Virus record (IMG/VR): IMGVR_UViG_3300048599_000897
Coordinates: 17,477-81,476 of that record
Source of the DNA: a virus
Length of the DNA stretch: 64,000 nucleotides
Direction: 5' to 3' (one strand)
Under the pieces are notes generated by a model. It saw only the letters and a program-made list of their open reading frames with translations, was not told the origin of the DNA and did no database searches. The position numbers were made by a program, and so were the translations under genes. This document shows, piece after piece, positions 11,059 to 40,326 of this stretch (its first letter is position 1; each line of letters starts with the position of its first letter).

Positions 11059-11061
11059 ATC

Positions 11062-11739: not shown

Positions 11740-11746
11740 GAGGGCC

Positions 11747-11791: not shown

Positions 11792-11852
11792 ATTGTTCAC
11801 TTTCGGCGAATCGGTTCCCCATCGAACATCTGCCCAAAATTCGGAGGTCCTT

Positions 11853-12631: not shown

Positions 12632-12634
12632 CGC

Positions 12635-14629: not shown

Positions 14630-14637
14630 GAACTTCT

Positions 14638-15441: not shown

Positions 15442-15450
15442 GGAGACCCC

Positions 15451-16263: not shown

Positions 16264-16272
16264 AGGTGACCT

Positions 16273-24000: not shown

Positions 24001-24280
24001 CAAGCTCGAACGCGAAATCGGCTTGCTCAAGTCGCAGCGCAGCCAGGGATTACTATTCGCCAGTCAAGGCGACCTCGACGCGATTGACCGCTCCATCGAA
24101 ATGCGGCAAGAAGAACTGAATCGACGCCGGGCGCATTACGAGGAGATACGCGAACAACTCGCCCGCGAACGGGAACGCGTCGTCAAAGTGCTGTTGCCCA
24201 ACCGCTATGCCCTTCAGGGTGAAGCACAGGTCTTCCCCGTGGCTGTAGAAGTCCGGTTCCCCGCAGGAGGTGCCCAATGA
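21017..24280 (+). CDS. drmD: SNF2-family helicase, DISARM DrmD-like
   Basis: LIADDVGLGKT, IVDEVHN, TATPHNG, SEGLNLQ, WNPSRLEQRNGRLDR. Confidence 0.8.
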   Translation: MSQQRPSPILPRVGMLAVTRNRRGIVSEVRPFGGTHGPLQHLVRLEYKDDLRPERDDLIWELEPAPQLLEPGELPSSRNNPMPAADFDALVRAARWTAINPFIDPDDTGPATRQPISAPFHGAVEIDDFQLVPLLKALRMPRVSLLIADDVGLGKTIEAGLIVSELIIRRRVNRVLILTPASLRIQWRDEMWSKFAMPFDVVDKNSSLKLKRSLGIDANPWRCSNRAIASYHYLRQPDVLEQFLSASRTAEGSAHLPWDLLIVDEVHNLMPAPIGEDSQLCRMLRQIAPLFEHRLFLTATPHNGHTRSFTGLLESLDPVRFTQTDELRPAERERVKQVVIRRLKREINQRTSPPRFCTRKPPQAIVLSLSPAELALVTAFDGLRSKVRSLVAQASKQRRLAGTFAIEILGKRLLSGPTTFLESWRRCKAGMMEEAAAADEEVLAAEKVVNEDTADDREAQQRESTAAGVVGAWMKPIAADIAAEIDQIDSAAVKLKVKLDQDIVAQDPASDARYKALFDLINSSLRSDGKWLVDERIVVFTEYKTTLDYLLRRLRHDFVDADRFLCLFGGMDDPQREQIKQAFNDPENKVRVLVATDAASEGLNLQSTARYLLHYDCPWNPSRLEQRNGRLDRHGQARDVQTYHFASTQHADLHFMDYLIRKVDQIREDLGATGDLFDEATHRRLIEGEDVTAVQQALELGLAKVKTATTVPVDDTIRDGDGSGDDQAQQQLKALAEELDLDGDAAYGTLETALADKVGHPQLGELDNLKRFDLKRPDLPGWKDLIDQSVRLQNPGGTLGPVPKLTFTPEAFMVKVGPRSVFRPRNDTLMLHLAHPIMRKATGSLTRLRFPGPMSVSRWAVRMGPVPKGADALIVLYLEELAVNDLRETFHHWIRTIQFPVNGDTLGPSLPHVPAIKLRKATACRDEVLTAKAAAILDDLQPELRRFINEWRKTMTATLKKQLSIDGEQARKDEDQRYQSRQGEVSSLIAENTLAKLEREIGLLKSQRSQGLLFASQGDLDAIDRSIEMRQEELNRRRAHYEEIREQLARERERVVKVLLPNRYALQGEAQVFPVAVEVRFPAGGAQ

Positions 24281-27200
24281 GCACGGACACTCTCCAGTGG
24301 TGGGGTAATCTTCTTCACGGCGGAATGCTGCTGGACCTGCCCCGGCTCAATCAGGTTTTGACCCCGCCAGTCGATCCATTGCCCTGGTTCACGGTAGACC
24401 GCCTGCGGCGCGAACTCGCCGCATTCGCCAGCGACCCGAGCAAGACTCGCAGCAACTTCGTGGCCTTCGTCCTGGAGAAGGTTTGCATCTTCCATCCGCC
24501 GGAGGGCACCTGGCACCGTGGATCAAAGGTCGACGCCTCCTGGACCCGGCGCGGCTTTGGCAACGAAGCTATCCGCCCTTCCCACCTTTGGGTCGGCCCG
24601 CACGATTCGTACTTGCCGGTCTTCCTCGATGACAACAAGCGGCTGGGTATGGGTCGGGGCAAGCGCATCCACTCGCAGGCCCTGCAATGGCTTCGCGCTA
24701 CGGGCCAATCCCTCGCTATTCTCACCAACGGCCAACAGTGGCGTCTGCTCTTCGCTGGGCTGGATTTTGATGCGTTCGTCGAATGGGACAACAGCCAGTG
24801 GTTTGCCGAGGGCGAGGCCTCCCCCGAACTGGCGGGCTTTCGTTCATTGCTCCAACCACGCCTGTGGCACAATCCGCAACCCGGAACTGCGTCGCCCCTG
24901 CTGGCTGCCATCCGCGAAAGCCGCAAGGGCCAGGCCGATCTGTCAAAGGTTCTCGGCGAACGTGTCCGTCAGGCTGCCGAACACCTCGTCCAGGCCCACT
25001 ACGCTGCGCTCGCCGGCGAGAAGGATCTCCCCCCGGCCGACATCTACCGCGCCGCCGTGCGCATGATCATGCGCCTGGTGGTTGTGCTTTTTGCCGAAAG
25101 CCGCGAGGGCCTGCTCCCTCGCGACAACACTGTCTATTATGGCACCTACAGCCTTCACGGCCTGCGCGAACTACTGGAACGCATCAGCCCACATCGTCTG
25201 GCGGATGCCTACGCAGCCTATCCACGCATTCTGTCGCTGCTGCGGCTGATCCACGGCGGCTCCTACCACGAAGCAATGCCGGTGCCGGCGTATGGTGGCG
25301 AACTTTTCGCACCCGGCCGCGCCGACAGCCCTGACCCCATGAGCCGGGCGCTGTATCTCTTTGAGACGGCGTGCCTGAACCAGAGCCTCATGAGCGATCT
25401 GGACGTCCGCAAGACGCTCGACCTGCTCACCCGCACCCGCGTCAAGATTCGCCAGGGGCGCACGGCAACCTGGATGACCGCGCCGGTGGACTTCTCCGGT
25501 CTGGACAGTGAATACATAGGCATTCTTTATGAAGGTCTGCTCGATTTTGAGCTCCGCTGCGCCGCAAACGACGAACCCATCGTCTTCCTCGCCGTAGGTA
25601 ACGAGCCGGCCCTTCCGCTGAGCACTCTGGAGCAGATGGACGATAGCGCCATCAAGAACCTCTTGGAGAAACTCAAAGACACCTCCGCCGATGACGAGGA
25701 GGAAGAGGCCGAAGATGAGCCCGATGAATCGGCCGAGGCCGAAGATAATGCTGAAGCCGAAGTTGAGGAAGTCGCGGAAGTAACCGCCGAAGAAGAAGCC
25801 GTCGAGGCGCAACCCGACGCCGATTCGCACTACACGCTCCAGGCTCGCGCCGAGAATTGGGCCAAACGGGTGTGCCAGATCGCCAACCTGGTCGCCCGAC
25901 CTCGCGGCACAATGACGCCGGAAAAGCAGATGCAGTACGAACGGGCGCTGGCGGCCAAGGCTCGGCAACTGGTCGTCAAGGTTGTTCTGCCCGGCGAGTG
26001 GTATCTGGTTCGATGGGGAGGGACCCGCAAGGGCTCGGGCACGTTCTACACCCGGCCGCCATTGGCTGTGCCTACCGTGCATCGCACGTTGCGTCCCCTT
26101 GCCTATGACCCACCTGTGGGCGCAGATGGCAAACCTAACACGATGGCTCCGCCCCATGTGTGGAAGGTCAAGATGCCAGAAGCCATTTTGTCTCTGAAGG
26201 TCTGCGACCCAGCCTGCGGTTCGGGCTCGTTCGATCTGGCGGCGCTGCGTTTTCTCACCCAGGCACTTTACGAGTCAATGCAGAAGCATGGCCGTTTCCG
26301 GCAGCACAACGGCCGCGACATCATGGACCTCATCATGGACAGCCAGGGCCGCGAATCCCTGGTCAACGAAGCCTTGCCTTGCCGCCCGGATGATGATGAT
26401 TTTGAGCCGCGAGTGAAAGCCATCCTCCGCCGGTACGTGGTGGAGCGCTGCATCTATGGCGTCGATCTCGACCCACTGGCCGTGGAGTTGTGCCGCCTGT
26501 CGCTCTGGATCGAAACCCTCGACCGCTCCTTGCCCCTGACCTTCCTCAACCACAAAATCAAGGTCGGTAACTCTCTCGTGGGCGCGTGGTTCGACCAATT
26601 CCTCCACTACCCGGCGATGGCATGGGAGCGCGAGGGCGGAGACAAGAACCACACTAATGGTGTTCACTTCCAGAAGGAATCATGGACCAAGGCGATCAAA
26701 GAATTTGCCAAAAAGGTCAAGATAGACCTGATCCACTTCATCGAAGGGGCGCAGCTCTTCTACCCCGTGGACCTCGCCACCGTTCGCAATGGTCACGATG
26801 CTGCCGAGGCCGCGCTCAAGGAAATCCACAACCTTGGCATCGCACAGGTGGATCAGCGTGCTGAGAAATACGAAACACTGCGTGCTGACACCGCGTTTTT
26901 GAAGCTCAAGGAGGCCTTTGATCTCTGGTGTGCCATGTGGTTCTGGCCCGCCGACCAGCTCGCCCACGCTCCACTTCCCACGCAGTTTGCCGAAGGAAAG
27001 CTTAACAACACCGCCCGTGAGGTCGTCTATGGGCTATCTCGGCAGATGCGGTTTTTCCACTGGGAGTTGGAGTTCCCTGACGTGTTCAACGTGGGCTCGG
27101 GCGGTTTTGACGCCGTGTTGGGCAATCCGCCGTGGGACATTTCCAAGCCCAATAGCGCTGAATTTTTTTCTACGGTCGATCCCCTTTACCGTGGGTACGG

Positions 27201-29289
27201 CAAGCAAGAGGCAGTCGGTATGCAACGTCGCTATTTTGAACGCGATGCCACGACTGAGCGCCGATGGCTAGAGTATACCGCCCGTCTCAAAGGCATGAGT
27301 AACTGGGTCAAGTACGCCGGTTTCCCATTTGGCGACCGGGTCTCAACAGATGAAGATGGAAAACAGTCGCACGACCTGAACCTCGGCGACCGTGGCCGCG
27401 ACAGCTTCCATAGCTCCGAGCGCCGGCACAAAAAATGGAAGCAGAAACGAGAGGAATCCTCTGGCTACGCCGACGTTTGCCATAGCTTCCGCCACCAAGG
27501 TTCCGCCGACTTGAACTTGTACAAACTCTTTTTGGAGCAGGCCCACTCAATCCTGGCGGACGGCGGACGACTGGGTTTTGTTGTCCCTTCTGGGCTCTAC
27601 TCCGACGTCGGCACAGGTAGCCTACGCCGTCTTTTCATCGGCAATTGTCGCTGGGAATGGCTCTTTGGCTTTGAGAACCGCGCTGGCATCTTCGACATTC
27701 ATCGGTCGTTCAAGTTCAACCTTGTTATTATCGCCAAGGGTGGGCAGACGGACACAATCCGTACGGCATTCATGCGTCGAGACCTAGCAGATTGGGAGCG
27801 AGGGGAAGCGTTGGCCACGCTGTATCCACGCGAGCAAGTGATTCGATTCAGTCCCGTATCGCTGGCAATCTTAGAATTGACTACACAGAAAGACTTGGAC
27901 CTTCACAGTCAGATGTACGCAACTTCCACGCCAATTGGCGGCAAGGATGCCTGCATCCCGGTCAGGTATTTTAATGACGAGTTCCACATCACAAAGGACT
28001 CCCGGCTCTTTCCACCCTTGCCAAAATGGATTAACGAGGGCTTCCAGATGACCGAGGAGGGTGTCTGGCGAAGAGGATCTGATGTTGCGGTCCCGCTCTA
28101 CGAAGGACGGATGATTGACAGCTTTGATTTCAGTGCCAAAGCTTGGATAAGCGGGAAAGGCCGGACCGCAGTATGGGATGAAGTCCCTTGGCAAAACAAG
28201 CGATTCGGGCCGCAATATTTGATGAGCCAGCCTGATTCGTGCAAGAGCAAGTACGTGGATCTCAAGCGTCCCGTAATCGTCTACAAAAAGGTTACATCGA
28301 GCACAAACCGACGAACCCTCTATGCCACAATAAGCACACGAATACCAAGTTGCGACTCCGCGCCGGTGCTCATGCCACTTGCCAACCGACTGCGCAACTG
28401 CTTACGACTGTGCGCTGTACTCAACTCGTTGGCTTGTGATTACACGTTCCGGCGACGAATGTCAGGCGTGACAGTTACGTGGCAGTATATGTCTGAAACG
28501 CCTTGTCCAAAACGCATCGATGATTCGTTAACAATGTTTGTTGCTCGCCTCGCACTTGCCCATGCACATTTTGCACCAGAGTGGTTGATGCTTTGTGCGG
28601 GGCAACCACTGCAATCATGGAAAGCGAAATGGGCTTGCACCGAGCACGAGCGTCGGCGGCTGCGTGCAATCGTTGATGCTGTTGTCGCCGCCTCATACAA
28701 CCTCAGTGCCGGTGATTTGCTCTGGATCCTCGACGAGTGCGACTGGCCCAAAGTGTGGCTACGCAGCAACCTGTCCTCCCGCGGACGGAATCCAAAAGGC
28801 TTCTGGCGTGTCGACAATGACCTGGACCCAGAGCACCGCCATACCGTTCTCTCCCTAGTGGCTTTCCGGGACCTCCAGAAACAGATTGACACATGCGGCG
28901 GCGACGAAGCCGAGGGCATAAAAGCGTTCTGTAGCCAGAACGACGGTGATGGATGGATGCTGCCTGAAACGCTCCGCTTGGCCGACTATGGTCTTGGCCA
29001 TGACGACCGTGCCAAGGAGTACCAGCCCGTTCGCGAGTGCTTTGGCCCGCGATTCTACGACTGGCAACTCGCCCAAACCTCCGAGGAAAGCTGGAAGGAA
29101 TGCCATCTCCACGCCCGCAGTCTCTTGGGCGCGGCGGGTTATGAACGCCTTCTTGCTGAGATTGAAGGCAAGCCTGCCCCAGATGCCGGTCCCGCTGCTG
29201 CCCCCAACACCATCGACCACCGAAGCGGCACGCTCTTCGACACGGACGATGCACCCCTATTTCAGAAATCCGTCAGGAAGGAAAAATAG
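24277..29289 (+). CDS. Large N6-adenine DNA methyltransferase (DrmMI / Type IIG-like) with a variable TRD
   Basis: RKGSGTFYT, DPACGSGSF, IYGVDLDP, FHWELEFP, GNPPW; AT-richer TRD segment at ~27.85-28.75 kb. Confidence 0.88.
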   Translation: MSTDTLQWWGNLLHGGMLLDLPRLNQVLTPPVDPLPWFTVDRLRRELAAFASDPSKTRSNFVAFVLEKVCIFHPPEGTWHRGSKVDASWTRRGFGNEAIRPSHLWVGPHDSYLPVFLDDNKRLGMGRGKRIHSQALQWLRATGQSLAILTNGQQWRLLFAGLDFDAFVEWDNSQWFAEGEASPELAGFRSLLQPRLWHNPQPGTASPLLAAIRESRKGQADLSKVLGERVRQAAEHLVQAHYAALAGEKDLPPADIYRAAVRMIMRLVVVLFAESREGLLPRDNTVYYGTYSLHGLRELLERISPHRLADAYAAYPRILSLLRLIHGGSYHEAMPVPAYGGELFAPGRADSPDPMSRALYLFETACLNQSLMSDLDVRKTLDLLTRTRVKIRQGRTATWMTAPVDFSGLDSEYIGILYEGLLDFELRCAANDEPIVFLAVGNEPALPLSTLEQMDDSAIKNLLEKLKDTSADDEEEEAEDEPDESAEAEDNAEAEVEEVAEVTAEEEAVEAQPDADSHYTLQARAENWAKRVCQIANLVARPRGTMTPEKQMQYERALAAKARQLVVKVVLPGEWYLVRWGGTRKGSGTFYTRPPLAVPTVHRTLRPLAYDPPVGADGKPNTMAPPHVWKVKMPEAILSLKVCDPACGSGSFDLAALRFLTQALYESMQKHGRFRQHNGRDIMDLIMDSQGRESLVNEALPCRPDDDDFEPRVKAILRRYVVERCIYGVDLDPLAVELCRLSLWIETLDRSLPLTFLNHKIKVGNSLVGAWFDQFLHYPAMAWEREGGDKNHTNGVHFQKESWTKAIKEFAKKVKIDLIHFIEGAQLFYPVDLATVRNGHDAAEAALKEIHNLGIAQVDQRAEKYETLRADTAFLKLKEAFDLWCAMWFWPADQLAHAPLPTQFAEGKLNNTAREVVYGLSRQMRFFHWELEFPDVFNVGSGGFDAVLGNPPWDISKPNSAEFFSTVDPLYRGYGKQEAVGMQRRYFERDATTERRWLEYTARLKGMSNWVKYAGFPFGDRVSTDEDGKQSHDLNLGDRGRDSFHSSERRHKKWKQKREESSGYADVCHSFRHQGSADLNLYKLFLEQAHSILADGGRLGFVVPSGLYSDVGTGSLRRLFIGNCRWEWLFGFENRAGIFDIHRSFKFNLVIIAKGGQTDTIRTAFMRRDLADWERGEALATLYPREQVIRFSPVSLAILELTTQKDLDLHSQMYATSTPIGGKDACIPVRYFNDEFHITKDSRLFPPLPKWINEGFQMTEEGVWRRGSDVAVPLYEGRMIDSFDFSAKAWISGKGRTAVWDEVPWQNKRFGPQYLMSQPDSCKSKYVDLKRPVIVYKKVTSSTNRRTLYATISTRIPSCDSAPVLMPLANRLRNCLRLCAVLNSLACDYTFRRRMSGVTVTWQYMSETPCPKRIDDSLTMFVARLALAHAHFAPEWLMLCAGQPLQSWKAKWACTEHERRRLRAIVDAVVAASYNLSAGDLLWILDECDWPKVWLRSNLSSRGRNPKGFWRVDNDLDPEHRHTVLSLVAFRDLQKQIDTCGGDEAEGIKAFCSQNDGDGWMLPETLRLADYGLGHDDRAKEYQPVRECFGPRFYDWQLAQTSEESWKECHLHARSLLGAAGYERLLAEIEGKPAPDAGPAAAPNTIDHRSGTLFDTDDAPLFQKSVRKEK

Positions 29290-29850
29290 ATGCCGGCCAC
29301 ACAAATCCATTCCATTCCTGGTCTGAAAAACCTGTTTAACGGGTGTTCCGATGAAGTGCGGGCGCATTTTGAACATCTCCCGTCGCTGCTGGACAACTAT
29401 CCGCTTGAGGTTGCTCTCGGTTATGTGTTTCACCGCCTGGAGCTGGGACAGAACATGGCGCTTTATTGCGGGGTAGTCAAACTCCACCGCGCCTGCTGCA
29501 AGGTTGCCAGCAACACCATCGATTCGCACCACATGACGCGAGAAGGGTTCGTTGAGCTGTACAAGACGGTGTTCGACCTCGATCTGCCAGCCGATGCCAC
29601 CCGAGAACTTCGCACTGCCGAAAAGACGCGCGATGCAGTAATGCACGGAGGGGACGCGTCCGAGGCTCGTCTTCGCAATGCCATTGGTCGAGTTCTCGAA
29701 TTCGCCGAGGCACTAAACGACGAATTACATAATCACCACCAGTGCAAGCCATTTTCTGGGTATTGGAGGGGTTTTGCTGGCCGACTCAAAAAACTCGACG
29801 CAAGAACGACACGGTACATGCTGAAAGGCATGGGCTTCAGCCTAGCTTGA
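29290..29850 (+). CDS. HEPN-motif protein (putative RNase)
   Basis: All-helical ~186 aa with R-x4-H motif RDAVMH (29629-29646) and upstream Glu (LELG). Confidence 0.65.
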   Translation: MPATQIHSIPGLKNLFNGCSDEVRAHFEHLPSLLDNYPLEVALGYVFHRLELGQNMALYCGVVKLHRACCKVASNTIDSHHMTREGFVELYKTVFDLDLPADATRELRTAEKTRDAVMHGGDASEARLRNAIGRVLEFAEALNDELHNHHQCKPFSGYWRGFAGRLKKLDARTTRYMLKGMGFSLA

Positions 29851-29860: not shown

Positions 29861-30877
29861 ATGACTATGCCGGCCGACATTGGCGAAATGTTCTACACGG
29901 GCGAGACACCGTGGCACGGACTTGGCATTGCCCTGGCAAAGCCTGCCACGCTCGACGAAGCCATCAAAGTCGGCGGCTTGGACTGGCAGGTGGGTCAGGT
30001 GGACCTCATGACGGCCGATGATCCGCCCTCACCCGTCAGCAAGCGGCGGGCGATTGTGCGCCTGGACCGGCCCGCGGGGCACGAAGGGCGGGTGCTGGGC
30101 GTCGCCCATCTGGGTTTCCAGCCCGTGCAGAACCGGGACGGGGCGCTGCTCTTTGATGCGATCTTTGGCCACGGCAAGCCCGTGTATCACACTGGCGGTT
30201 ACCTGGGCAATGGTGAGGTGGTGTGGCTTCTGGCGAAGATTGACAAGCCGCTGGAGGTCGCCCCCGGCGACATCGTCCAACCGTATGCACTGTTTGCCAA
30301 CAGCCACGACGGCTCGATGGCGTTCAACATCCGCCTGACGACGGTGCGCGTGGTCTGTCGCAACACGCTGGCGCTATCCATGCGAGAGAAGCGGTTCGGC
30401 AAGCAGTTCCGCCGCGCCCACCAGGGAACGCTTCGCGAGCATGCGGAGGCCGCGCAGGAGTTTTTCGCCGCCACACTGAAGGAATTGGACTTTGTCGCTG
30501 GTGCCTTCACCGACTTGACCAAGCGGTCGTGTAGCGACGAGAAATACCTCCAGATCATCGAGGCGATCCTGCCCGAACCTGCGAAGCCCCGCAATGCCGA
30601 GCGTAGCCCCGGGTTACTGAAGGCGTGGGAAAACCGCGTGGCCGACGTGCGGGCCGCACGAAAGAAGATCGGCGAGTTGCGTGCCGGCGGCAAGGGGATG
30701 GACCTGGCCGGATCGCGCGGGACGTTCTGGGGCGTGCTTAACGCGGTGCTGGAGTTCATCGACCACCATCGGGTGATCAAGGGCTCGCGTCTGTCCTACG
30801 CCTTGATGGGCGATGGGATGGAGCTGAAGGTGCGAGCGTTCAACATGATTCGTGACGAGGCCGCGAAGGCCGCATAA
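29861..30877 (+). CDS. DUF932 family protein
   Basis: TPWHGLG...GGLDWQV, NSHDGS, VRVVCRNT, H..TFWGVLNAV signatures. Confidence 0.85.
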   Translation: MTMPADIGEMFYTGETPWHGLGIALAKPATLDEAIKVGGLDWQVGQVDLMTADDPPSPVSKRRAIVRLDRPAGHEGRVLGVAHLGFQPVQNRDGALLFDAIFGHGKPVYHTGGYLGNGEVVWLLAKIDKPLEVAPGDIVQPYALFANSHDGSMAFNIRLTTVRVVCRNTLALSMREKRFGKQFRRAHQGTLREHAEAAQEFFAATLKELDFVAGAFTDLTKRSCSDEKYLQIIEAILPEPAKPRNAERSPGLLKAWENRVADVRAARKKIGELRAGGKGMDLAGSRGTFWGVLNAVLEFIDHHRVIKGSRLSYALMGDGMELKVRAFNMIRDEAAKAA

Positions 30878-30940: not shown

Positions 30941-32572
30941 ATGGGAACATCGCAGTATCTCTCCGGCCTGACAGAAGCACAACGAGCGGAATTGCAGGTG
31001 CGCCTGTACAAGCGCCAGGATCACCGCTGCTTCATCTGCGATGAGAAGATCGACCTGGTGCTTCACAAGGGGCAGCTGGACATCGACCATATCGATCCCA
31101 CCGCTAAGGATGGCCTCGATGCGGAGAATAACTTCGCTTTGACCCATTTGTCGTGCAATCGGAGCAAGGGGGCCTCCAATCTTGAAGTCGCCCGGCGGTT
31201 GGCCGAGTTCGAGCGATTACAGGAACGGGCGCAAAACGAGCGCCGCCGTGGTGCAAATCTTGGAGATGTCCTGCAATGCCACAACGGCGCAAAATCGATG
31301 CTGCGGCTGCGGCACGAAAATGGCGTGGCGCAATACGCGTTATCTCACGTGGGCGACAATGCCGTTCGCACCGCAATTATCTTCAAGGACAAGCTCAGTG
31401 GCATGGAGTCATTTTTTGCGATGATGCCGTTGGAGTATCTGCATCATGATGACCGGATCAATCCGCGAACCATCGGGTCCAATATTCGTGGATTGATCGA
31501 GGAGTTTCTGGAAAAGCGACCACAGCTTCATGTGGCATTGGCCTGGTGGGCTCCAGAGAGGGATGGTGCGGGACCGGTGAAGGTCTTTGACGGTCAGCAC
31601 AAGGCGGCGGCACAGATACTGCTGGGAGTGCGGGAGTTGCCAGTCCGTATCTTTGTCCAACCGGACACCAACGTGTTGCTGCAGGCAAATACCAATGCCG
31701 GAAGCACGCTGCGGCAGGTTGCATTCGACACCGCTGTCCTTCGTCATCTAGGAAGCTCGCTCTACGCGGAGAGAGTGGAGAAATATCGGAAAATGAGGGG
31801 GCTTTCGGAAACAGATTACACCTTTTCGGAATCCGATCTGGTCCGGTTCTTTCGCGGTGAACGTCGAGAAATGGAACGATATATCATTGACGCTCAGCGC
31901 GATTCAGTAGGCCACGACCCCAATAACAAACTTCTGGAGTTCGTTGAATGGGCTGGCAAAGGTGCCGACAGGCCTTTGTCGTACAATTCGGTGGAACGCG
32001 CCATCTTTAAGTGGTTTCTCTACAAAAAGGCCTTGGATACTCCCATTGGGTCAGGGATGGAAGAGGGCACAAACCCGCGTGTGTTGGAGCGCGAACAACT
32101 GGTCCGCGTCATGAGCCTTTTTGCGGAGATTTTCTTTGTTGGGCAATGGGACCCCGAGCTTGGCGGTCGCCAGCTGGAGGCTCGGCTCCTAAAGGGCGAC
32201 GTGATTCCGCCCGGTCATCTTCGGGCATGGCGCATCGCCAGAGAGGAAATACTGACGAACGTCATGAGGAGGTTGTTACTTGTCATCACTAACTACTTTG
32301 CATGGACAGGTAAAGTTATTCATGAAGATCGGGTGCTGCATACCCGGCTGCCGGATGAATTGTGGGAACGCATTCGGAATTTCCTTCAGTGTCTGGCGAA
32401 GCTGCCGTGTTGGATTGATAAGGGCCTTGGCACGAGTGTCTTTGGTCCCAAGCAGAATTTCGACTTCTGGGAGAAAGTATTCGAGACCGGCAAATCGCCG
32501 TCAGGGATTCAGATTTTGGCGAGCCCCCTAGACATCAACCAAATGATCCAGGGCCCTCATGCGCACAGATGA
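30941..32572 (+). CDS. HNH endonuclease fused to a DGQH (ParB/DndB/DUF262-like) domain
   Basis: CFICD...DIDHIDP...NNFALTHLSCNRSKG and VFDGQHK. Confidence 0.75.
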   Translation: MGTSQYLSGLTEAQRAELQVRLYKRQDHRCFICDEKIDLVLHKGQLDIDHIDPTAKDGLDAENNFALTHLSCNRSKGASNLEVARRLAEFERLQERAQNERRRGANLGDVLQCHNGAKSMLRLRHENGVAQYALSHVGDNAVRTAIIFKDKLSGMESFFAMMPLEYLHHDDRINPRTIGSNIRGLIEEFLEKRPQLHVALAWWAPERDGAGPVKVFDGQHKAAAQILLGVRELPVRIFVQPDTNVLLQANTNAGSTLRQVAFDTAVLRHLGSSLYAERVEKYRKMRGLSETDYTFSESDLVRFFRGERREMERYIIDAQRDSVGHDPNNKLLEFVEWAGKGADRPLSYNSVERAIFKWFLYKKALDTPIGSGMEEGTNPRVLEREQLVRVMSLFAEIFFVGQWDPELGGRQLEARLLKGDVIPPGHLRAWRIAREEILTNVMRRLLLVITNYFAWTGKVIHEDRVLHTRLPDELWERIRNFLQCLAKLPCWIDKGLGTSVFGPKQNFDFWEKVFETGKSPSGIQILASPLDINQMIQGPHAHR

Positions 32573-32605
32573 TACACGGCGTGACAAATTCAAGGAGTTG
32601 ATGAA

Positions 32606-33151
32606 ATGAATCTTCCTCGTAGTGGTTCGATCCGTCGGGCGCTCAAAGGAACAATCCGTGAGATCAAAGCCGCGCGGAAAGAGCTCAATGGCCGAATTTC
32701 CAAGTTGATGGCCCACGGCGAATATGAGAAGGCCCAGGCGATGATTGCCCAGGCCAAACAGACCCAAAGTTTCGAGGATGAAGTGCAAACTTTACGGAAA
32801 CGGCTTTCGGCTCTGAATGGCGGAGTCGGTGATTCTAAACCTGCCCCATCGGAAAGCCGTGCGGATTGGGAGTACTACCAGCCGATCTTGAAATGCCTGG
32901 CTGATTTTCCTGGCGAGGTGACGCGTCCACAAATTGAAAGGTCGTTCTCGGAACGATTTGATTCCTGGTTACTTCCAGGGGATCGCGAGGCGATGAGCGG
33001 CGGGACGCGATGGCAAGTAATGATCAAGCGATCAAAAAAACACATGCTATCAGAGGGATGGATCGAAGCACGAAACAAGCTATCGTGGAATATCACGCCC
33101 GCCGGAAGAAAAGTCGCCCAGCAAGACCAACCGACCACACAAACGAAATGA
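32606..33151 (+). CDS. Coiled coil plus Mrr_N-like winged-helix protein
   Basis: PILKCLAD...RW...LSEGWI...W.ITPAGR, the Mrr N-terminal wHTH pattern; no catalytic domain. Confidence 0.65.
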   Translation: MNLPRSGSIRRALKGTIREIKAARKELNGRISKLMAHGEYEKAQAMIAQAKQTQSFEDEVQTLRKRLSALNGGVGDSKPAPSESRADWEYYQPILKCLADFPGEVTRPQIERSFSERFDSWLLPGDREAMSGGTRWQVMIKRSKKHMLSEGWIEARNKLSWNITPAGRKVAQQDQPTTQTK

Positions 33152-33157
33152 GCAACT

Positions 33158-36100
33158 ATGGCCATTAATCCTATCACTTACACTGAAAAAGTTGTGCGCA
33201 GCTTTCTGCGATATCAGTTGACGGCATATCCGTTTACCGATCCTCGGCTGCATAGCCAGATGCGTGACCTCCTGAACATGGACTCGGCGCGGCACACGCC
33301 GCTGTTGCAGGGGCCGTATATCAGTCTTTCTCGGAGTTTCAAGCAAGGTGCATCCATTGCCGACCTTGTGAGCGCCGGCATTTTCCACGGTCACATGAAG
33401 GCGATCATCGGCGAGCGGGTATCGCACCTCTATGGGCATCAGGAGAACGCGATCCGCGCCGTGGTCAGTGGGAAGACAACGCTGGTCTCGACGGGGACGG
33501 GCTCAGGTAAGACCGAGTGCTTCTTGTACCCGATTATCAGCAAATGCCTGCAGATTCGGGACGCCGGTGAACCGGCTGGAATCTCGGCGGTGATCGTCTA
33601 CCCGATGAACGCGCTGGCGGAGGACCAACTCGACCGTTTGCGGGGGCTACTGGCCGGCAGCGGGATCACGTTCGGCATGTATGTCGGCAAGACGCCGGAG
33701 TATGAGCGCGAAGTGTCGGGACACAGATTGCAACCAGGCTCAACGCGAGCCGACTACGAGGCGGTTTTAAAGAAATATCGGGAACAGGGCCGCCCCGATG
33801 CCGTGCATCCCACTGAAGAGGTCTGCTCGCGTGAGAAGATGCGCACGCCCGGCAGCCAGCCAAGGATTCTGCTGACCAACGTGAAACAGCTTGAACTGCT
33901 GCTGACACGGCAGATGGACGTGGAGCTGTTTGAGAAGGCCCGGCTGGACTACTTGGTGTTCGACGAGGCACACACGTTTACCGGGATCAATGGGGCGGAA
34001 ACAGCGTGCCTGATCCGCCGCCTTCGCAAGTATTGTGGCAAGACCGCGAAGCAGACAACCTGCGTGGCGACTTCGGCGACGATTGTGGATGTGTCCGATC
34101 CGGATGCGGGACGGAAATTTGCCTCCCGGTTCTTCGGGACACCAGCGGAAGACGTCGTGTGCGTCCACGAGGAATATGAATCAGAGACCTTTAAGCCCAA
34201 GGGGGGCGTGCCCAACGCTCCGAGTAATCCGGGAGAATTGCTTAAGCGCACACTTGCGGCGGTGGACGCGGAGAGCCCGGAGCCTGAAATCCGCGATATC
34301 TATGCCAAGTTGTGCGGGGTCAAATTACCCGTTGGGGACTGGCAAATCGCACTGCATGATGCCCTTTTGGAAAATGTCATTGCATCGAGAATCCGCGTTG
34401 GTCTCCAAGGAGTCCGGCGGATGGAGCTGTTGATGGATGAACTGGAACATTCAGTCAAGCGGGCGGTTTCTGAAGAAGAACTCTTGACCTATCTGGCGCT
34501 GGGGGCAACGGCGTTTCGTGATGGGCGTCCTATCTTCCGGCCCGTCGTGCATGCCTTTGTTCGTGGTATTCCCGGTGCCGTCGTGACCTTCCCGCTGGAT
34601 GCTGACATTAAGCTATGGCTTAGCAGCGAGGATGAGATCGCGAGGTGTGGCGACAAGGGAACATGGCGCGTGCCGGCACACACATGCACTACCTGCGGCC
34701 AACACTACTTCGTCACCTGGCTCAAAGACTTTAAATTCATAGGCAAGGAACCCGAAGGCGGGCAACTGGACGATGATGGCCACGTGTGGTGGGAGGCGAT
34801 GGCTCAAACGAACGGTGGCAAGCGGGTGGTGCTGGTGGATCGGGTTATCTGCCAGGAAGAGGACGAAGATCTTGAGGACCATGAACGCCTCACGCCGCTG
34901 TTCTTCTGTCGCCATTGCGGGGCTGCGTTCTCCCATGAGACGACCAAGTGCCGGGGTTGCGGCAGCATGGAGAAGCCGGTGCGGTTGTACGCGGCACGTA
35001 GCTCTAAGGATCATCCTGGATACCTGAGCAGTTGCCTGTCATGCACGTCCAAGGGCAGACCTATGGGGCGGCGCTACCGTGAGCCGATGCGCCCAGTGCG
35101 TGCGGTGAACGTAGCAGATGTGCATGTTCTGGCGCAGGACATGGTGCATCATGCCGAGCGCAAGCGGCTGTTGCTCTTTGCTGACAATCGGCAGGACGCC
35201 GCTTTCCAGGCGGGGTGGATGAAGGACCACGCTCGCCGCTTCCGCTTACGACGGTTGATGGCCGATTCGATGAAGGGCGGTCCAGTCTCAATTGGCGATA
35301 TGGTTAACAAGATTGATATTGAACTTGATGCCAATGATGCGCTGTCGCGGGCATTAATTCCGGAGGTCTGGCGCGTCGTGCCAAAGGAAGGAACCGGAGG
35401 CACGCATGCTGACGAGCGGCGGCACTACCTTCGTATTCAGGTTTTGCGGGAAATCGCCACGCCGGCCAATGAACAGCGTGGCCTAGAACCGTGGGGCCGT
35501 CTCCGCGTGACGTATATCGGACTGGAAGTCGGAGCCCAGTTCATTCAGAAGTGGGCTAACAAGCTTGGCTTACCTCCGGAAGACTTGAAGGGCGGCATCG
35601 AAACCCTTCTGGACCAACTGCGCCGCCAGCGCATGTTGCACGACCCGCACCGCGAGATTTTCGGCCGCTGGTGGAATGAGGGCGACCGCGAGATTCAGCG
35701 TGGTTATTTGCCCGTTCTGCCCGGTGGGCCGCAGGGGATGAAGTTGCGGATCGACACTGGCGACAATCGAGACCGCGTGCGCCCGTGGTTAGGAGATCGA
35801 AACACAATCGTACGGCAAATTGCTCGTAAGTGGGGAGTGGCCGATGCGGAAATCCCGCACTTCTTGGAGGCTTTGTGGGATTACCTGCGCGCCGATTCGC
35901 TTGGCATCCTGTCGCCAGTTACGCTCAAGAGTAATAAGGACAGACCGCTGCCGGCATGTAGCGGTGTTTACCAGATTGAGTCGTCGTGCCTTCAGTTGAG
36001 TGAAAACCACGGTTATCACCGATGTAAGAAGTGCCGGCGCAAGGTGTCCCGTCGGGCACCCCATAATCGATGCTTAGCGTGGCAGTGCGATGGCGAGATG

Positions 36101-38605
36101 GAATTTGTCAAAGAGGACCCGGATAACTATGACCTCCAGTTGCTCGATCAGGGATACTCGATGCTGCGGCCCGAGGAACACACCGCGATGGTGCCCCAGG
36201 ACCAGCGGGAGCGTGTCGAGAACTACTTCAAAGGCTCCGGTGATGCGGTAAACACGCTGGTCTGCACTCCCACGCTCGAACTTGGCGTGGATATCGGGTC
36301 GCTCGATTCAGTGTTGATGAGAAATGTTCCGCCATTGCCGGCGAACTACTGGCAGCGGGCAGGCCGCGCTGGTCGCCGGCATCGGATGGCAGTGAACCTA
36401 TGCTATTGCCGGCCCGTGTCACACGACCGTGCATATTATGGCGAACCACTGAAGATGCTGCAGGGTAAGGTCGATCCGCCGGCGTTCAATCTGCGGAACG
36501 ACCTAATGGTCGCCAAACACGTCCACGCAACGGTCTTCACACGCCTGTTCCAACTTACCCGTGGAGGATCGGGGCTACTCGATGCAGACCGCGAGAAGAT
36601 TCAGGCAACGCTCACCGAGATGTTACCCAGAAGGATTTCCTCCTACCTTTTTGAATCGACCGGTCATGTCCGCAGCGGACCGTTCGACGTGTCACCGCTG
36701 GCGCAGCTCATCCAGGCCTATCGTGCGGACCTTCTGCAATACCTGGTCGGTGCTTTCCAGCAGGGATGGCCCGCCGCCGACCAGGCAGCGACGTCCACCT
36801 CGGCATTGGAGCAACACCTCGATGCGATGCCTGGCCAGATGGCTGCAGTACTCAAGCGACTGCGGAAGCGGTTGCAATGGGCGCATGCCGAGATCACTCG
36901 GCTCAACGAGATCCGCGCGAAATTTGGCACGCTCGAAAGCGAAGATGATGCGCACTACAAGCGCTGCGACCGACTGATCAAGAAACTCAAGGGATTTCAG
37001 ACCCGCAAGCGTGCCGAAGCCGAGGGTATAGACGACATCAATACGTACGGGGTCTTGGCGGTAGAAGGCTTTCTCCCCGGCTATGGGTTGGATACGGGGT
37101 CCGTTACCGGCATGGCAGAAGTTCCATATTGGCAACTTGGCAGTATGGACTTTGAATTGCCGCGTCCCACCAGCATGGCAGTTCGGGAATACGTGCCAGG
37201 AAACCTGATTTATGCTAATGGGCACCGCTTCGTCGCCCGCCGATTTCATCGTGAGGCTGAAGAAGAGCGATCCGAAATGCCGGTCTTTGAGGTCAATGTG
37301 GACCGCGAAGCAGTGTCGGAGACCAGCATCGCGGCAGCTCCGGGGGTAATTGCGTCAGCAACCTTGCGAACCATCTCCGTCTGTGATGTGGACTTGGTTC
37401 ACATATCCCAGATCTCCGATGAGGAAGAAACGCGATTCCAGATGCCGGTCTCCGTGTACGGCCGCGAAAAAGGACGGCACAACGGCGGTGTTGCGCTCAA
37501 ATGGGGAACACGTAAGCTCCTGCATCGGCGGGGAGTCCATCTTCGGCTGGTGAATGTTGGTTCCACACCGGTGATCGAACAGAATCTGGAACTCGGTTAT
37601 CCGATCTGCGCCGTTTGCGGCCAGAGCGTGTCGCCACTTTCCTCCACGGCCCAAATCGACAGCTTCAGCAAGCAGCACGAGGAGCGTTGCGGGCGAAAAC
37701 CAGAGCGACTCGGGTTTTTCGCCGATGTTGTGGCCGATTGCCTGGTGATGCCGGATTGCCCAAGCCGTGAGGAAGCCTATAGCGTGATGGAAACCATCCG
37801 CATGGGTGCCACACAGGTACTGGACATGCACTTGGACGACCTCCAGGTACTCGTGATCGGCCACGTTGACCGAGACGAAGTTGACGCCGTCCTGTGGGAC
37901 CCGATGCCCGGTGGATCGGGGTTGTTGGATCAGATTCGCGAGCACATGGCCGAGGTTGTCGCTGCAGCCATTGCGCTCGCAAAGGGTTGTCCCAGCGCTT
38001 GCGAGAAGGCTTGTGTGGATTGCCTGCAGACCTTCCGCAACGCTTACTACCACCGGCACCTCAATCGTCACACGGCCGCCGCCACACTAGGCGACTGCGG
38101 TGTGACCGTGACGGAGCTACACCCAATTCCGCCCCAACAGCCGACGACGCAGAACCACAACCCGTCGGCCATGCCCGTCAACGACGCGGAGACTAAACTG
38201 AAACACCTGATTGAAGCGGCTGGGTTCACAACCGGCCAGTTCCAGCAGCAGATTCGATTTAAGCAGTCTATCAGCCTGGGGCACCAAATCGGGAGCACCA
38301 CCCCCGATGTTTCTTTTGCGGGCGATGAGGATGACCCTGACGATCACGGCGTTTGCATCTACCTAGACGGAATGAGCGCTGGCCTGCATGGAAACCCGGT
38401 AACTGCGGCCAAGGACCAGGAGATCCGATCCTGGCTGAGATCGCATGGTTACGAGGTGATCGAAATCACGGCGGTCGAACTAGACGACCAGCAGGCGATG
38501 GTCAGACACTTCAGGAAACTGGCGAAGTACCTGGCGGGCAAAGAACTTGCAGACAAAGTGGTTACCGATACGACATGGTTTACGAAATCCGCACCGGCTG
38601 AATAG
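33158..38605 (+). CDS. YprA/Hrq-type DEAH helicase + DUF1998 + C-terminal Vsr/DUF559-like nuclease
   Basis: TGTGSGKTECF, YPMNALAEDQ, DEAH, TLELGVDIG, QRAGRAGR, WDPMPGGSG...C..AC..CL, TTPD...YLDG...KDQEIR..L...GYEVIEI; several CxxC pairs. Confidence 0.88.
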   Translation: MAINPITYTEKVVRSFLRYQLTAYPFTDPRLHSQMRDLLNMDSARHTPLLQGPYISLSRSFKQGASIADLVSAGIFHGHMKAIIGERVSHLYGHQENAIRAVVSGKTTLVSTGTGSGKTECFLYPIISKCLQIRDAGEPAGISAVIVYPMNALAEDQLDRLRGLLAGSGITFGMYVGKTPEYEREVSGHRLQPGSTRADYEAVLKKYREQGRPDAVHPTEEVCSREKMRTPGSQPRILLTNVKQLELLLTRQMDVELFEKARLDYLVFDEAHTFTGINGAETACLIRRLRKYCGKTAKQTTCVATSATIVDVSDPDAGRKFASRFFGTPAEDVVCVHEEYESETFKPKGGVPNAPSNPGELLKRTLAAVDAESPEPEIRDIYAKLCGVKLPVGDWQIALHDALLENVIASRIRVGLQGVRRMELLMDELEHSVKRAVSEEELLTYLALGATAFRDGRPIFRPVVHAFVRGIPGAVVTFPLDADIKLWLSSEDEIARCGDKGTWRVPAHTCTTCGQHYFVTWLKDFKFIGKEPEGGQLDDDGHVWWEAMAQTNGGKRVVLVDRVICQEEDEDLEDHERLTPLFFCRHCGAAFSHETTKCRGCGSMEKPVRLYAARSSKDHPGYLSSCLSCTSKGRPMGRRYREPMRPVRAVNVADVHVLAQDMVHHAERKRLLLFADNRQDAAFQAGWMKDHARRFRLRRLMADSMKGGPVSIGDMVNKIDIELDANDALSRALIPEVWRVVPKEGTGGTHADERRHYLRIQVLREIATPANEQRGLEPWGRLRVTYIGLEVGAQFIQKWANKLGLPPEDLKGGIETLLDQLRRQRMLHDPHREIFGRWWNEGDREIQRGYLPVLPGGPQGMKLRIDTGDNRDRVRPWLGDRNTIVRQIARKWGVADAEIPHFLEALWDYLRADSLGILSPVTLKSNKDRPLPACSGVYQIESSCLQLSENHGYHRCKKCRRKVSRRAPHNRCLAWQCDGEMEFVKEDPDNYDLQLLDQGYSMLRPEEHTAMVPQDQRERVENYFKGSGDAVNTLVCTPTLELGVDIGSLDSVLMRNVPPLPANYWQRAGRAGRRHRMAVNLCYCRPVSHDRAYYGEPLKMLQGKVDPPAFNLRNDLMVAKHVHATVFTRLFQLTRGGSGLLDADREKIQATLTEMLPRRISSYLFESTGHVRSGPFDVSPLAQLIQAYRADLLQYLVGAFQQGWPAADQAATSTSALEQHLDAMPGQMAAVLKRLRKRLQWAHAEITRLNEIRAKFGTLESEDDAHYKRCDRLIKKLKGFQTRKRAEAEGIDDINTYGVLAVEGFLPGYGLDTGSVTGMAEVPYWQLGSMDFELPRPTSMAVREYVPGNLIYANGHRFVARRFHREAEEERSEMPVFEVNVDREAVSETSIAAAPGVIASATLRTISVCDVDLVHISQISDEEETRFQMPVSVYGREKGRHNGGVALKWGTRKLLHRRGVHLRLVNVGSTPVIEQNLELGYPICAVCGQSVSPLSSTAQIDSFSKQHEERCGRKPERLGFFADVVADCLVMPDCPSREEAYSVMETIRMGATQVLDMHLDDLQVLVIGHVDRDEVDAVLWDPMPGGSGLLDQIREHMAEVVAAAIALAKGCPSACEKACVDCLQTFRNAYYHRHLNRHTAAATLGDCGVTVTELHPIPPQQPTTQNHNPSAMPVNDAETKLKHLIEAAGFTTGQFQQQIRFKQSISLGHQIGSTTPDVSFAGDEDDPDDHGVCIYLDGMSAGLHGNPVTAAKDQEIRSWLRSHGYEVIEITAVELDDQQAMVRHFRKLAKYLAGKELADKVVTDTTWFTKSAPAE

Positions 38606-38617: not shown

Positions 38618-39454
38618 ATGGGCGACACAAAACTCGACCAAGTTGGGATTTGGACAGAGCTCAAGCTGCAGATTCTGCGGGACTATTCTGCCGCCTATGC
38701 GGCGATCTTGAAGAAACAGTCCGCAATCCGCCACTACGCCTACATTGATGGCTTCGCGGGAGCCGGAACTCATATTTCCAAGACGACGGGTGAGGAGATT
38801 GAGGGAAGCCCGACGATCGCGCTGGGGCAGCAGTTCACGCACTATCACTTCGTCGACCTCGACGGCACTCGGGCGGCGCGCCTAATTCAGCTCGCAAATG
38901 GCAAGACCAACGTCACCGTGCATCAAGGGGATTGCAACGATGTGCTGCTTAATAAGGTCTTTCCAACGTGTCGATACGAAGACTACCGACGTGCGCTCTG
39001 CCTGCTGGACCCTTATGGCCTCAATCCGAACTGGGAGGTCGTTCATCGCGCCGGGCAGATGAAGAGCATCGAGATCTTCCTGAATTTCATGATCATGGAC
39101 GCGAACATGAATGTCCTGTGGGAGAACCCAGACCGGGTTCCCGAGACGCAGGTTGCTCGCATGAACGCCTTTTGGGGCGATGACTCCTGGCGTGGTGCTG
39201 CGTACAAAACGAATCAGGGTCTGTTCGGAGCGATCCAGGAGAAGGGATCAAACGATGATGTCGTGAATGCGTACAGGAAACGATTGAAGGACGTCGCCGG
39301 CTTCAATTTCGTACCTGCACCGTTGCCAATGAGAAACAGCCAAGGTGCCATCGTCTACTACCTCTTCTTCGCATCCCACAATCAGACGGGGGATAAGATT
39401 GCCCAGGCGGTCTTCAACAAGTACCGAAACGGAGGACTCGCCCATGGCCAGTAA
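38618..39454 (+). CDS. tcmP: Three-Cys-motif partner protein (SAM-methyltransferase-like fold)
   Basis: WTELKLQIL, YIDGFAGAG, GSP, LLDPYG, YYLFFAS. Confidence 0.85.
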   Translation: MGDTKLDQVGIWTELKLQILRDYSAAYAAILKKQSAIRHYAYIDGFAGAGTHISKTTGEEIEGSPTIALGQQFTHYHFVDLDGTRAARLIQLANGKTNVTVHQGDCNDVLLNKVFPTCRYEDYRRALCLLDPYGLNPNWEVVHRAGQMKSIEIFLNFMIMDANMNVLWENPDRVPETQVARMNAFWGDDSWRGAAYKTNQGLFGAIQEKGSNDDVVNAYRKRLKDVAGFNFVPAPLPMRNSQGAIVYYLFFASHNQTGDKIAQAVFNKYRNGGLAHGQ

Positions 39455-40163
39455 GTCAAAGATCGAGTGGACAGAGTCCACATGGAACCCAGTCACGGGC
39501 TGTACCAAGATCAGCCCGGGGTGTAAGCACTGCTATGCCGAACGCATGGCCAAGCGGTTGCAGTCGATGGGGCAGCCCAACTACGCGAAGGGTTTCTCAC
39601 TTACCGTTCAGCCGCATGTGGTTAATGGACCGCTGTCGTGGAAAACGCCACAGATGATCTTCGTCAATTCGATGAGCGATCTCTTCCACAAGGACGTGCC
39701 CCTTGAGTTCATCCTCCAGGTGTTTGATGTCATGAACCGGGCACACTGGCACCAGTTCCAGATTCTGACGAAGCGGTCCGGTCGGCTGCTCCAACTGGCC
39801 CCGGAACTGCCCTGGGCGAAGAATATATGGATGGGGGTTTCGGTTGAGTCGGAGCAGTACACGTCACGCATTGACGATCTTCGCAATACCGAAGCGGCCA
39901 TCAAGTTTCTGTCACTCGAGCCGCTTCTGGGTCCGCTCCCGAATCTCGACCTGGCCGATATCGACTGGGTCATTGTCGGCGGGGAGTCCGGCCCCCGCGC
40001 CAGGCCGATGGATGAGGCATGGGTGGTCGAGATCAAAGAACAATGCACGGCGGCCAAGGTGCCCTTCTTTTTCAAGCAATGGGGCGGAACCAACAAGAAG
40101 AAGGCCGGTCGGACGCTGCGCGGTCGTACATGGGACCAAATGCCCGTGGGCGTGAGTGCTTGA
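39444..40163 (+). CDS. DUF5131 / phage Gp37-Gp68 family (radical-SAM-like three-Cys protein)
   Basis: TWNPVTGCTKISPGCKHCYAE, NSMSDLFH, LTKRS, SLEPLLG, GGESG, FFFKQWGG. Confidence 0.9.
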   Translation: MASKSKIEWTESTWNPVTGCTKISPGCKHCYAERMAKRLQSMGQPNYAKGFSLTVQPHVVNGPLSWKTPQMIFVNSMSDLFHKDVPLEFILQVFDVMNRAHWHQFQILTKRSGRLLQLAPELPWAKNIWMGVSVESEQYTSRIDDLRNTEAAIKFLSLEPLLGPLPNLDLADIDWVIVGGESGPRARPMDEAWVVEIKEQCTAAKVPFFFKQWGGTNKKKAGRTLRGRTWDQMPVGVSA

Positions 40164-40283: not shown

Positions 40284-40326
40284 GCAGAACCCCGAGCGCG
40301 AGAGCGTTTGGGGTTCTTGCATTTTT
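40284..40326 (+). terminator. Intrinsic terminator of the defence operon
   Basis: GAACCCCGAGCGC-GAGA-GCGTTTGGGGTTC stem with G-U pairs, GNRA loop and T-rich tail. Confidence 0.6.

Follow-up and report, generated by a model that had tools for sequence, protein, structure and literature searches.

What are a nuclease gene and a small winged-helix gene doing between the methylase and a helicase of a defence operon? The question is raised by a 64,000-nucleotide stretch (hereafter the window) taken from positions 17,477 to 81,476 of IMGVR_UViG_3300048599_000897, a 102-kb IMG/VR provirus record. The larger gene encodes a 543-aa protein (P0001) with an HNH nuclease domain followed by a ParB/sulfiredoxin (Srx) fold, and the smaller encodes a 181-aa partner (P0002) with an Mrr_N-type winged helix. 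Both open reading frames (ORFs) were recovered, co-directional, exactly where the original prediction, made from the letters of the window, had placed them. An AAGGAG Shine-Dalgarno sequence is found 6-8 nt ahead of the ATG in each, and the gap between the genes is 33 nt.

We favour, with confidence that is about evenly balanced, the reading that the pair is a self-contained, two-subunit, nucleotide-gated restriction-type nuclease which works in the manner of GmrSD, BrxU and SspE. It builds on the observed pairing and co-inheritance of the two genes, on the intact catalytic and fold features of the nuclease and on neighbourhoods of defence type. The two-subunit, nucleotide-gated form was chosen because in GmrSD, BrxU and SspE a ParB-like domain binds or hydrolyses nucleoside triphosphates (NTP) and so controls a His-Me nuclease (PMC4619093; PMC13251355), and because restriction-enzyme winged helices act as readers of DNA or of its modifications (PMC11037411).

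Under this reading the 543-aa subunit would be the effector, with a Cas9-type HNH site that cuts DNA, while its ParB/Srx-fold domain and FDGQHK loop would bind, and perhaps hydrolyse, a nucleotide that gates the nuclease. The 181-aa subunit would be a non-catalytic adaptor, its helical hairpin either docking on the effector to give a physical complex or dimerising, and its winged helix would select the DNA to be cut, possibly foreign-modified DNA. From the variable slot that it occupies in an ARMADA/DISARM-like helicase-methylase operon, on an island linked to prophage, the cassette would then act against phages as an auxiliary, second-line nuclease.

Domain content of the two proteins

The only Pfam match of the large protein was to HNH (PF01844, residues 30-78, E 2e-6; score 28.3 bits, cut-off 21.4). 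The motif reads C30-x2-C33 ... D49-H50 ... N64 ... H69-x2-C72-N73, and among 71 homologues its residues are invariant or at least 90% conserved, K76 being conserved too. The catalytic residues (D49, H50, N64 and N73) and the zinc site (C30, C33, H69 and C72) are all kept, and the active site is predicted from the sequence to be an intact Cas9-type HNH nuclease site. An AlphaFold2 (AF2) model was built from the 71-sequence alignment (predicted local distance difference test score, pLDDT, 91.8; predicted template modelling score, pTM, 0.77). Its residues 11-93 superposed on the HNH domain of Cas9 with VIA Z scores of 8.1-8.3 and a root-mean-square deviation (rmsd) of 2.8-3.4 Å over about 80 residues. 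Searched against PDB sequences, the family profile matched HNH domains only (Cas9 and group II intron maturase; E 1e-10 to 1e-6). In PADLOC-DB 2.0 the large protein matched HNH-level models only (Cas9 and PtuB), the partner matched nothing, and no system-level match was obtained for either. Profile, residues and beta-beta-alpha-Me fold all identify the protein as an HNH endonuclease.

Behind the nuclease domain, model residues ~150-260 matched pNOB8 ParB-N, Noc, ParB-CTP, PadC and sulfiredoxin with a Foldseek probability of 1.0 (structures 5k5d, 7ol9, 7bm8, 1xw4 and 6ryk). VIA gave Z scores of 7.8-8.1, with Srx (3cyi) aligned over 95 residues at an rmsd of 3.2 and PadC over 99 residues at 2.1; as these values are middling, the model places the region in the ParB/Srx class at fold level only. 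Conserved residues here are H169, D170, N174, P175, R176, E188, P194, Q195, R236, N250, A253 and Q259. The FDGQHK box sits inside this fold in the model; Q219 and H220 are invariant in the 71 sequences, and F216, D217, G218 and K221 are at least 90% conserved. Both the HNH residues and the ParB/Srx set (R176, Q219, H220, N250, Q259 and others) are invariant or near-invariant across bacteria and archaea. What was seen with a bearing on nucleotide binding is a conserved ParB/Srx-type pocket with the FDGQHK loop and basic or acidic residues.

The original prediction had described a zinc-binding HNH ahead of a DGQHK motif, in the reverse of the GmrSD order (DUF262 then HNH), and both statements were borne out, the HNH domain preceding the ParB/Srx fold. 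Its label 'ParB/DndB-like' stood for the motif and the fold and fell for the family. The profile searches that it had proposed returned HNH and, in the partner, Mrr_N above their cut-offs, and no Pfam or NCBIfam match to ParBc, DndB (PF14072, TIGR03187) or DUF262 was found over the whole protein (E<=0.1), nor when residues 101-543 were scanned alone at E<=10. When aligned by hhalign with 12 DndB-family proteins, only 34 columns around DGQH were matched (E 0.006, probability 6%), a weak result that places FDGQHK on the DGQHR of DndB; the alignment to a single Mrr_N-DndB fusion was likewise marginal. Membership of the DndB or DUF262 families was rejected on these grounds, together with a negative hmmsearch of the PDB. 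The all-helical C-terminal domain superposed only loosely and in part, on helical regions of pNOB8 ParB-N and KorB, and had no Pfam match at E<=10.

The partner matched Mrr_N (PF14338) over residues 89-172 (E 1.3e-8; score 35.3 bits, cut-off 29.5), and the same domain is precomputed in 12 of 17 listed proteins, the query included. Its AF2 model (pLDDT 90.9) comprises a helical hairpin at 6-71, a disordered linker and a winged helix at 87-172, and nothing more. The hairpin helices (6-36 and 40-71) were modelled with a pLDDT of ~97; their structural matches are generic (Z ~10-11), and a Seryl_tRNA_N match was below threshold. Foldseek and VIA matches of the winged helix are generic as well and include the DpnI winged helix, PadR and the Hel308 winged helix. 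A basic helix reads R135-W136-x-V-M-I-K-R-S-K-K, and residues N28, G38, Y40, L95, G103, D126, W136, E150, W161 and G167 are invariant in a 32-sequence alignment. Neither Pfam nor the AF2 model revealed a catalytic domain, and no Mrr_cat (PD-(D/E)xK) is present on the chain, in keeping with the predicted coiled coil and Mrr_N winged helix without catalytic function. ESM-Atlas look-alikes, which serve as leads only, are ~190-aa 'Mrr N-terminal domain' clusters and Mrr_cat and McrB-type proteins.

Pairing and inheritance of the nuclease and its partner

The nuclease family comprises at least 2203 clusters at 90% identity, all of ~545 aa, from many bacterial and several archaeal phyla, with 60-79% identity between phyla; its members are annotated only as 'HNH endonuclease' or hypothetical. 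In 25 of 79 genome loci a partner gene, detected with a partner hidden Markov model (HMM), lies directly downstream of the nuclease gene at a distance of a few tens of nucleotides. Lack of co-occurrence elsewhere had been named in advance as counting against a two-gene module; the genes do co-occur, so this objection falls away.

On a nuclease tree from a quick IQ-TREE maximum-likelihood search, the rows with a partner fall into a single clade of 22 rows (support 99) that includes three losses (L012, L021 and L046), and one partner-bearing outlier (L045) falls within an otherwise partner-less clade. Gain and loss of the partner took 4 changes on this tree against 16.9 expected for shuffled labels, and none of 500 shuffles was as low. 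Whole-genome searches agreed with the local view: three genomes without an adjacent partner have no copy anywhere, and two partner-bearing genomes hold exactly one copy, the adjacent one. Pairwise divergences of nuclease and partner go together (Mantel r 0.585, a value that 0 of 5000 permutations reached). The partner is co-inherited with the nuclease in essentially one clade.

About two thirds of the sampled family members, that is all clades below ~53% identity with one locus excepted, have no partner, and these nucleases appear to work alone. The pairing is conserved and co-inherited in the partner-bearing clade and does not extend to the nuclease family as a whole. Nuclease residues specific to the partner-bearing clade lie in helix 81-101 and residues 337-454; these may be a lead for a docking surface, and phylogeny alone could produce them. 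Fused nuclease-partner forms were not found: a search of the partner profile against longer proteins came back empty, which is weak evidence, and no HNH-ParB homologue longer than ~570 aa occurs among the matches listed.

A related fusion does exist. An Acidobacteriota protein of 825 aa (L141) carries Mrr_N (E 9e-18) and a DndB/DGQHR ParB-fold domain on a single chain, and the partner profile aligned to its Mrr_N by hhalign with a probability of 96%; the Mrr_N winged helix and the DGQHR ParB-fold module are thus also joined in cis. It is one of four Acidobacteriota proteins of ~800 aa (L141-L144) built around a central DndB/DGQHR domain with exchangeable termini. L141 has Mrr_N as its N-terminal domain, L142 weakly matches a Card1-like endonuclease, and the C-terminus of L144 weakly matches HEPN_Swt1. 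Two of the four adjoin Dam-class methylases, and together they resemble a single-chain restriction-like family that has yet to be described.

Distant relatives of the partner (hairpin plus Mrr_N, E ~1e-25) were also found without an HNH-ParB gene, adjoining a DpnII-type restriction-modification (RM) system, an SNF2-NOV_C helicase, HerA with an SNase-like protein, and an AAA_14/DUF4143 ATPase. Proteins of this small hairpin-Mrr_N winged-helix type may serve several systems as a reusable adaptor.

Broken copies are frequent in the nuclease family. Stops or frameshifts interrupt five of them (L015, L025, L033, L039 and L042) and two are truncated (L024 and L072). Among 401 sampled Acidobacteriota genomes, two of four family copies are disrupted. 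Such broken copies could reflect the gene decay typical of costly defence genes, or assembly errors in metagenome-assembled genomes.

Genomic neighbourhoods and competing explanations

Nine of the 26 partner-bearing loci, one remnant counted, hold the pair within ARMADA/DISARM-like operons of SNF2 helicase, methylase and YprA-family helicase, compared with 1-3 of ~54 partner-less loci. The pair lies between the methylase and the YprA-like helicase in the window, L001, L011 and L064, the stop of the partner being followed directly by the start of the helicase (7 nt past the stop codon in the window). In L009, L015 and L024 such operons also hold the pair, with DarTG, RES, HNH_5 or Schlafen-ATPase genes in between, and in L008 the pair follows the SNF2 and methylase genes. 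L005 retains the pair, DarTG and a 29-residue remnant of the N-terminus of a YprA-like helicase (13729-13815), which suggests a joint excision of the pair and DarTG from an ARMADA-like operon.

The remaining partner-bearing loci are free of ARMADA-like genes for 10 kb around. The pair there has genes for Mfd, PdxA, asparagine synthase and haem biosynthesis as its neighbours, or else stands next to type I RM, a type IIG-like methylase, AbiEii or a D5-type primase. No DNA methylase lies within three genes in about two thirds of the partner-bearing loci. In the loci compared no conserved third gene surrounds the pair, and the sequences upstream of the cassette are unrelated beyond the ribosome-binding site, so that no conserved operator or promoter was found there. 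The cassette is horizontally mobile as a two-gene unit, and its neighbourhoods are rich in defence genes. Because its neighbours may be housekeeping genes, ARMADA-like operons, DarTG, AbiEii, Schlafen-ATPase or type I and IIG RM, we regard it as probably autonomous. It appears neither to be required by the surrounding helicase-methylase operon nor to require it, and the position between methylase and helicase, which also takes unrelated self-sufficient modules, has the look of a cargo site.

A number of points weigh against a two-subunit, nucleotide-gated nuclease. With no ParB, DndB or DUF262 profile match, nucleotide binding is argued from fold and motif only. Most of the nuclease family does without a partner, which would make the partner dispensable for basic activity, and the partner diverges ~1.8 times faster than the nuclease, as an antitoxin or inhibitor might. 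Winged helices are often transcription factors. No family member was found in 72,556 plasmids or 50,697 phage genomes (E<=1e-20), and the association with ARMADA-like operons could mean functional dependence and not hitch-hiking. Co-transcription with an N6-methyladenine (m6A) methylase in the window is awkward for an m6A-dependent reading.

The alternative that survives best, though we think it rather unlikely, makes the partner a controller- or antitoxin-like winged-helix regulator or inhibitor, which would act as a transcriptional repressor of the nuclease or keep it inactive until infection, in the manner of toxin-antitoxin or abortive-type systems. A small dimerisation-type hairpin with a winged helix is a common transcription-factor layout, the tight genetic linkage resembles a toxin-antitoxin pair, and both the faster divergence of the partner and the occurrence of its distant relatives beside unrelated systems (DpnII RM, SNF2-NOV_C, HerA with SNase) would fit. 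Against this, partner-less clades carry the same intact nuclease, which is therefore not intrinsically lethal, and a nuclease-first gene order is atypical for C-proteins and most type II antitoxins. The winged helix belongs to Mrr_N, which is typical of restriction enzymes. Because of the fusion in cis to a DGQHR domain, and because the DNA ahead of the cassette has no conserved operator or promoter (nor was any plus-strand promoter-like site found within the window operon), the partner is better taken as part of the enzyme than as a free regulator.

Somewhat more doubtful is the explanation in which the pair is a non-autonomous effector or sensor arm of the ARMADA/DISARM-like system, cutting DNA that the helicase complex has flagged as unmethylated. 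The recurrent position before the YprA-like helicase and the enrichment in such operons are what recommend it. YprA homologues of ARMADA and Druantia have been reported to end in Vsr- or PLD-type nucleases, and the last 215 residues of the window helicase (37958-38602) gave no Pfam nuclease match, Vsr-type or other. On the other side, most partner-bearing loci lie away from any ARMADA-like gene, several of them among housekeeping genes, and the same slot also receives DarTG, RES, HNH_5 and Schlafen-ATPase, as a cargo site would. ARMADA is a relative of DISARM with validated anti-phage activity; the defining papers name no HNH, ParB or Mrr component, hence neither of our proteins, and give its YprA homologue a nuclease of its own (bioRxiv 10.1101/2025.09.15.676423; PMC13463889).

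That the module has no part in immunity, and is instead a selfish, free-standing HNH endonuclease of the homing type or, like DndB/DpdB, a helper in DNA modification, is very improbable: its patchy distribution in bacteria and archaea at 60-79% identity between phyla, its insertion into housekeeping neighbourhoods and the service of DGQHR-type ParB-fold proteins (DndB, DpdB) to modification systems (PMC12839542) would allow it, but genes for modification synthesis are not among its recurring neighbours, its insertions interrupt no conserved target gene, and near absence from viruses (two full-length relatives among 2.9 million viral contigs, 0 of 50,697 phages) and absence from the plasmids are unlike homing endonucleases.

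We return to the favoured two-subunit nuclease and to what it might recognise. Modification dependence is plausible, since most loci lack a cognate methylase and the partner has Mrr_N; in prokaryotes, winged helices of type IV enzymes are readers of m6A (PMC11037411). As the pair is co-transcribed with an m6A methylase in the window, a mark that it targets would have to be other than the one made by the operon itself. GmrSD-type ParB and HNH enzymes such as BrxU are embedded in BREX operons as auxiliary effectors (PMC12839542), and the placement inside an ARMADA-like operon parallels this, suggesting an auxiliary, complementary layer. A more specific version of the favoured reading, put forward tentatively and with low confidence, is that the pair is a type IV-like nuclease for modified DNA with a detachable Mrr_N reader, in which the ParB/Srx NTP switch licenses cutting. 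ARMADA would then attack unmodified invader DNA and methylate self, and the HNH-ParB/winged-helix enzyme would catch hypermodified escapers.

In the window the two genes are the fifth and sixth of an eight- to nine-gene plus-strand cluster (Table 1). No plus-strand promoter-like site or terminator was seen within it, and a strong terminator follows it at 40286-40317. The 186-aa protein encoded directly after the methylase gave no Pfam, NCBIfam or PADLOC match even at E<=10. TcmP and DUF5131, a recognised but uncharacterised gene pair, close the operon. Past the terminator, the IrrE/M78 peptidase-domain and PIN_12 genes are further cargo of defence or regulation type.

Phage genes for terminase, portal, head protease and tape measure occupy 0.4-15 kb of the window, and a second morphogenesis set lies at 56-63 kb. 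This looks like two tandem prophages, or a prophage and a satellite, with the defence island between them. Two large serine recombinases flank a region of ~23 kb that holds the helicase-methylase operon and other defence-like genes, and this island may be a separate integrative element. Elsewhere in the window a phage-type gene encodes a ParB-like N-terminal domain joined to a DNA methyltransferase; its product bears no relation to the HNH-ParB protein.

Table 1. Coordinates of the features discussed. Positions refer to the window unless preceded by the handle of another locus or genome.
Feature	Position	Strand	Basis
HNH-ParB/Srx-fold gene (P0001, 543 aa)	30941..32572	+	ORF, translation
HNH (beta-beta-alpha-Me) domain, residues 11-93	30971..31219	+	Pfam, VIA
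Beta-rich extension and ParB/sulfiredoxin-fold domain, residues ~107-262	31259..31726	+	Foldseek, VIA
FDGQHK motif, residues 216-221	31586..31603	+	sequence
C-terminal all-helical domain, residues ~264-540, no assigned family	31730..32560	+	AF2 secondary structure
Partner gene (P0002, 181 aa)	32606..33151	+	ORF
Antiparallel helical hairpin (coiled coil), residues 6-71	32621..32818	+	AF2
Mrr_N-type winged helix, residues 87-172	32864..33121	+	Pfam, Foldseek, VIA
SNF2/DrmD(ArmA)-like helicase	21017-24280	+	Pfam, PADLOC
PglX/DrmMI(ArmB)-like N6-adenine methylase	24277-29289	+	Pfam, PADLOC
186-aa protein without family, directly after methylase	29290-29850	+	
DUF932 protein	29861-30877	+	
1815-aa YprA-family DEAD helicase with MZB/DUF1998 (DruE/ArmC-like)	33158-38605	+	Pfam, PADLOC
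TcmP	38618-39454	+	TIGR04474; PADLOC candidate PDC-M41A, E 1e-70
DUF5131 protein, overlapping TcmP gene	39345-40163	+	E 2e-104
TcmP and DUF5131 gene pair	38618-40163	+	
IrrE/M78 peptidase-domain protein	40795-41580	+	
PIN_12 protein	41663-42853	-	
Large serine recombinase (Resolvase, Recombinase, Zn_ribbon_recom)	18522-20528	-	
Large serine recombinase (Resolvase, Recombinase, Zn_ribbon_recom)	43758-45326	+	
First morphogenesis set	368-17181		
Terminase large subunit, first set	368-2674		
Portal, first set	3209-4714		
Head protease/major head, first set	4689-6767		
Tape measure, first set	12635-14629		
ParB-like N-terminal domain fused to DNA methyltransferase	53683-55053		phrog_498, E 1e-126
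Terminase, second set	56337-58640		
Portal, second set	61203-62759		
DarT/DarG (Macro), immediately downstream of partner	L005:12134-13722		
DarT/DarG (Macro), immediately downstream of partner	L009:12046-14030		
DarT/DarG (Macro), immediately downstream of partner	L015:12648-13982		
DarT/DarG (Macro), immediately downstream of partner	L024:13746-14216		
DndB/DGQHR protein, Acidobacteriota	L141:2320-4797		
DndB/DGQHR protein, Acidobacteriota	L142:1621-4005		
DndB/DGQHR protein, Acidobacteriota	L143:1345-3759	-	
DndB/DGQHR protein, Acidobacteriota	L144:1222-3552	-	
Distant partner relative, no HNH-ParB gene	L124:1395-3949		
Distant partner relative, no HNH-ParB gene	L122:397-4583		
Distant partner relative, no HNH-ParB gene	L121:5131-8891		
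Disrupted nuclease-family copy	G372:C1:907209-908814		
Disrupted nuclease-family copy	G337:C1:229052-229863		

Comparison with known restriction and defence systems

The operon around the pair shares SNF2, a PglX-like methylase and a YprA/DUF1998 helicase with ARMADA, class 1 DISARM and Druantia III (bioRxiv 10.1101/2025.09.15.676423). The pair itself is not among the described components of these systems and is mostly found outside such operons; with only 9 of 26 partner-bearing loci inside them, it was rejected as a core component of ARMADA or DISARM. What is new is that the cassette repeatedly occupies their cargo slot, which, if the favoured reading is true, offers an example of layered defence within one operon.

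DndB and DpdB resemble the large protein in having a DGQH[RK] motif in a ParB/Srx fold followed by a helical region, and a natural Mrr_N-DndB fusion exists. They differ in having no nuclease domain, and the large protein is unmatched by their profiles PF14072 and TIGR03187. Mrr and the type IV enzymes with fused winged helices likewise combine an Mrr_N-family winged helix with a nuclease, and most of their genes have no cognate methylase nearby (PMC11037411). Here, by contrast, the winged helix is on its own 181-aa chain with a coiled-coil hairpin, and it is the nuclease that carries the ParB/Srx module.

The closest likeness in working is to GmrSD, BrxU, SspE and DndI, an important class of modification-sensing restriction factors in which a ParB-fold NTPase is combined with a His-Me nuclease. 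In SspE, GTP hydrolysis in the ParB-like domain switches on its HNH (PMC13251355). The shared features are a ParB/Srx module with a DGQ[QH][RK]-type loop and a His-Me-finger nuclease on one polypeptide, a place in defence islands, and use as an auxiliary nuclease within larger methylase-helicase systems (PMC12839542; PMC4619093; PMC13251355). Membership of the GmrSD/BrxU/SspE family was rejected on domain order and profiles: GmrSD runs from DUF262 to DUF1524 (PMC4619093), whereas here the HNH comes first and the ParB-like module second, and there is no match to DUF262 (PF03235), DUF1524 or DndB. The nuclease differs too, being a Cas9/PF01844-type HNH with a zinc site where theirs is DUF1524, as does the helical C-terminal domain of ~280 aa. 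The family of the large protein, which is large, conserved and without a characterised member, appears to have reached the same logic independently, with another HNH type, in reversed order and with no sequence relationship. One clade has in addition placed the winged-helix function on a separate, strictly linked subunit. Should the favoured reading be true, the pair would be a tractable two-protein system in which to learn how a ParB/Srx switch controls a nuclease, and under its type IV-like version it would stand for a widespread class of two-component restriction systems that is new and has no sequence relationship to GmrSD.

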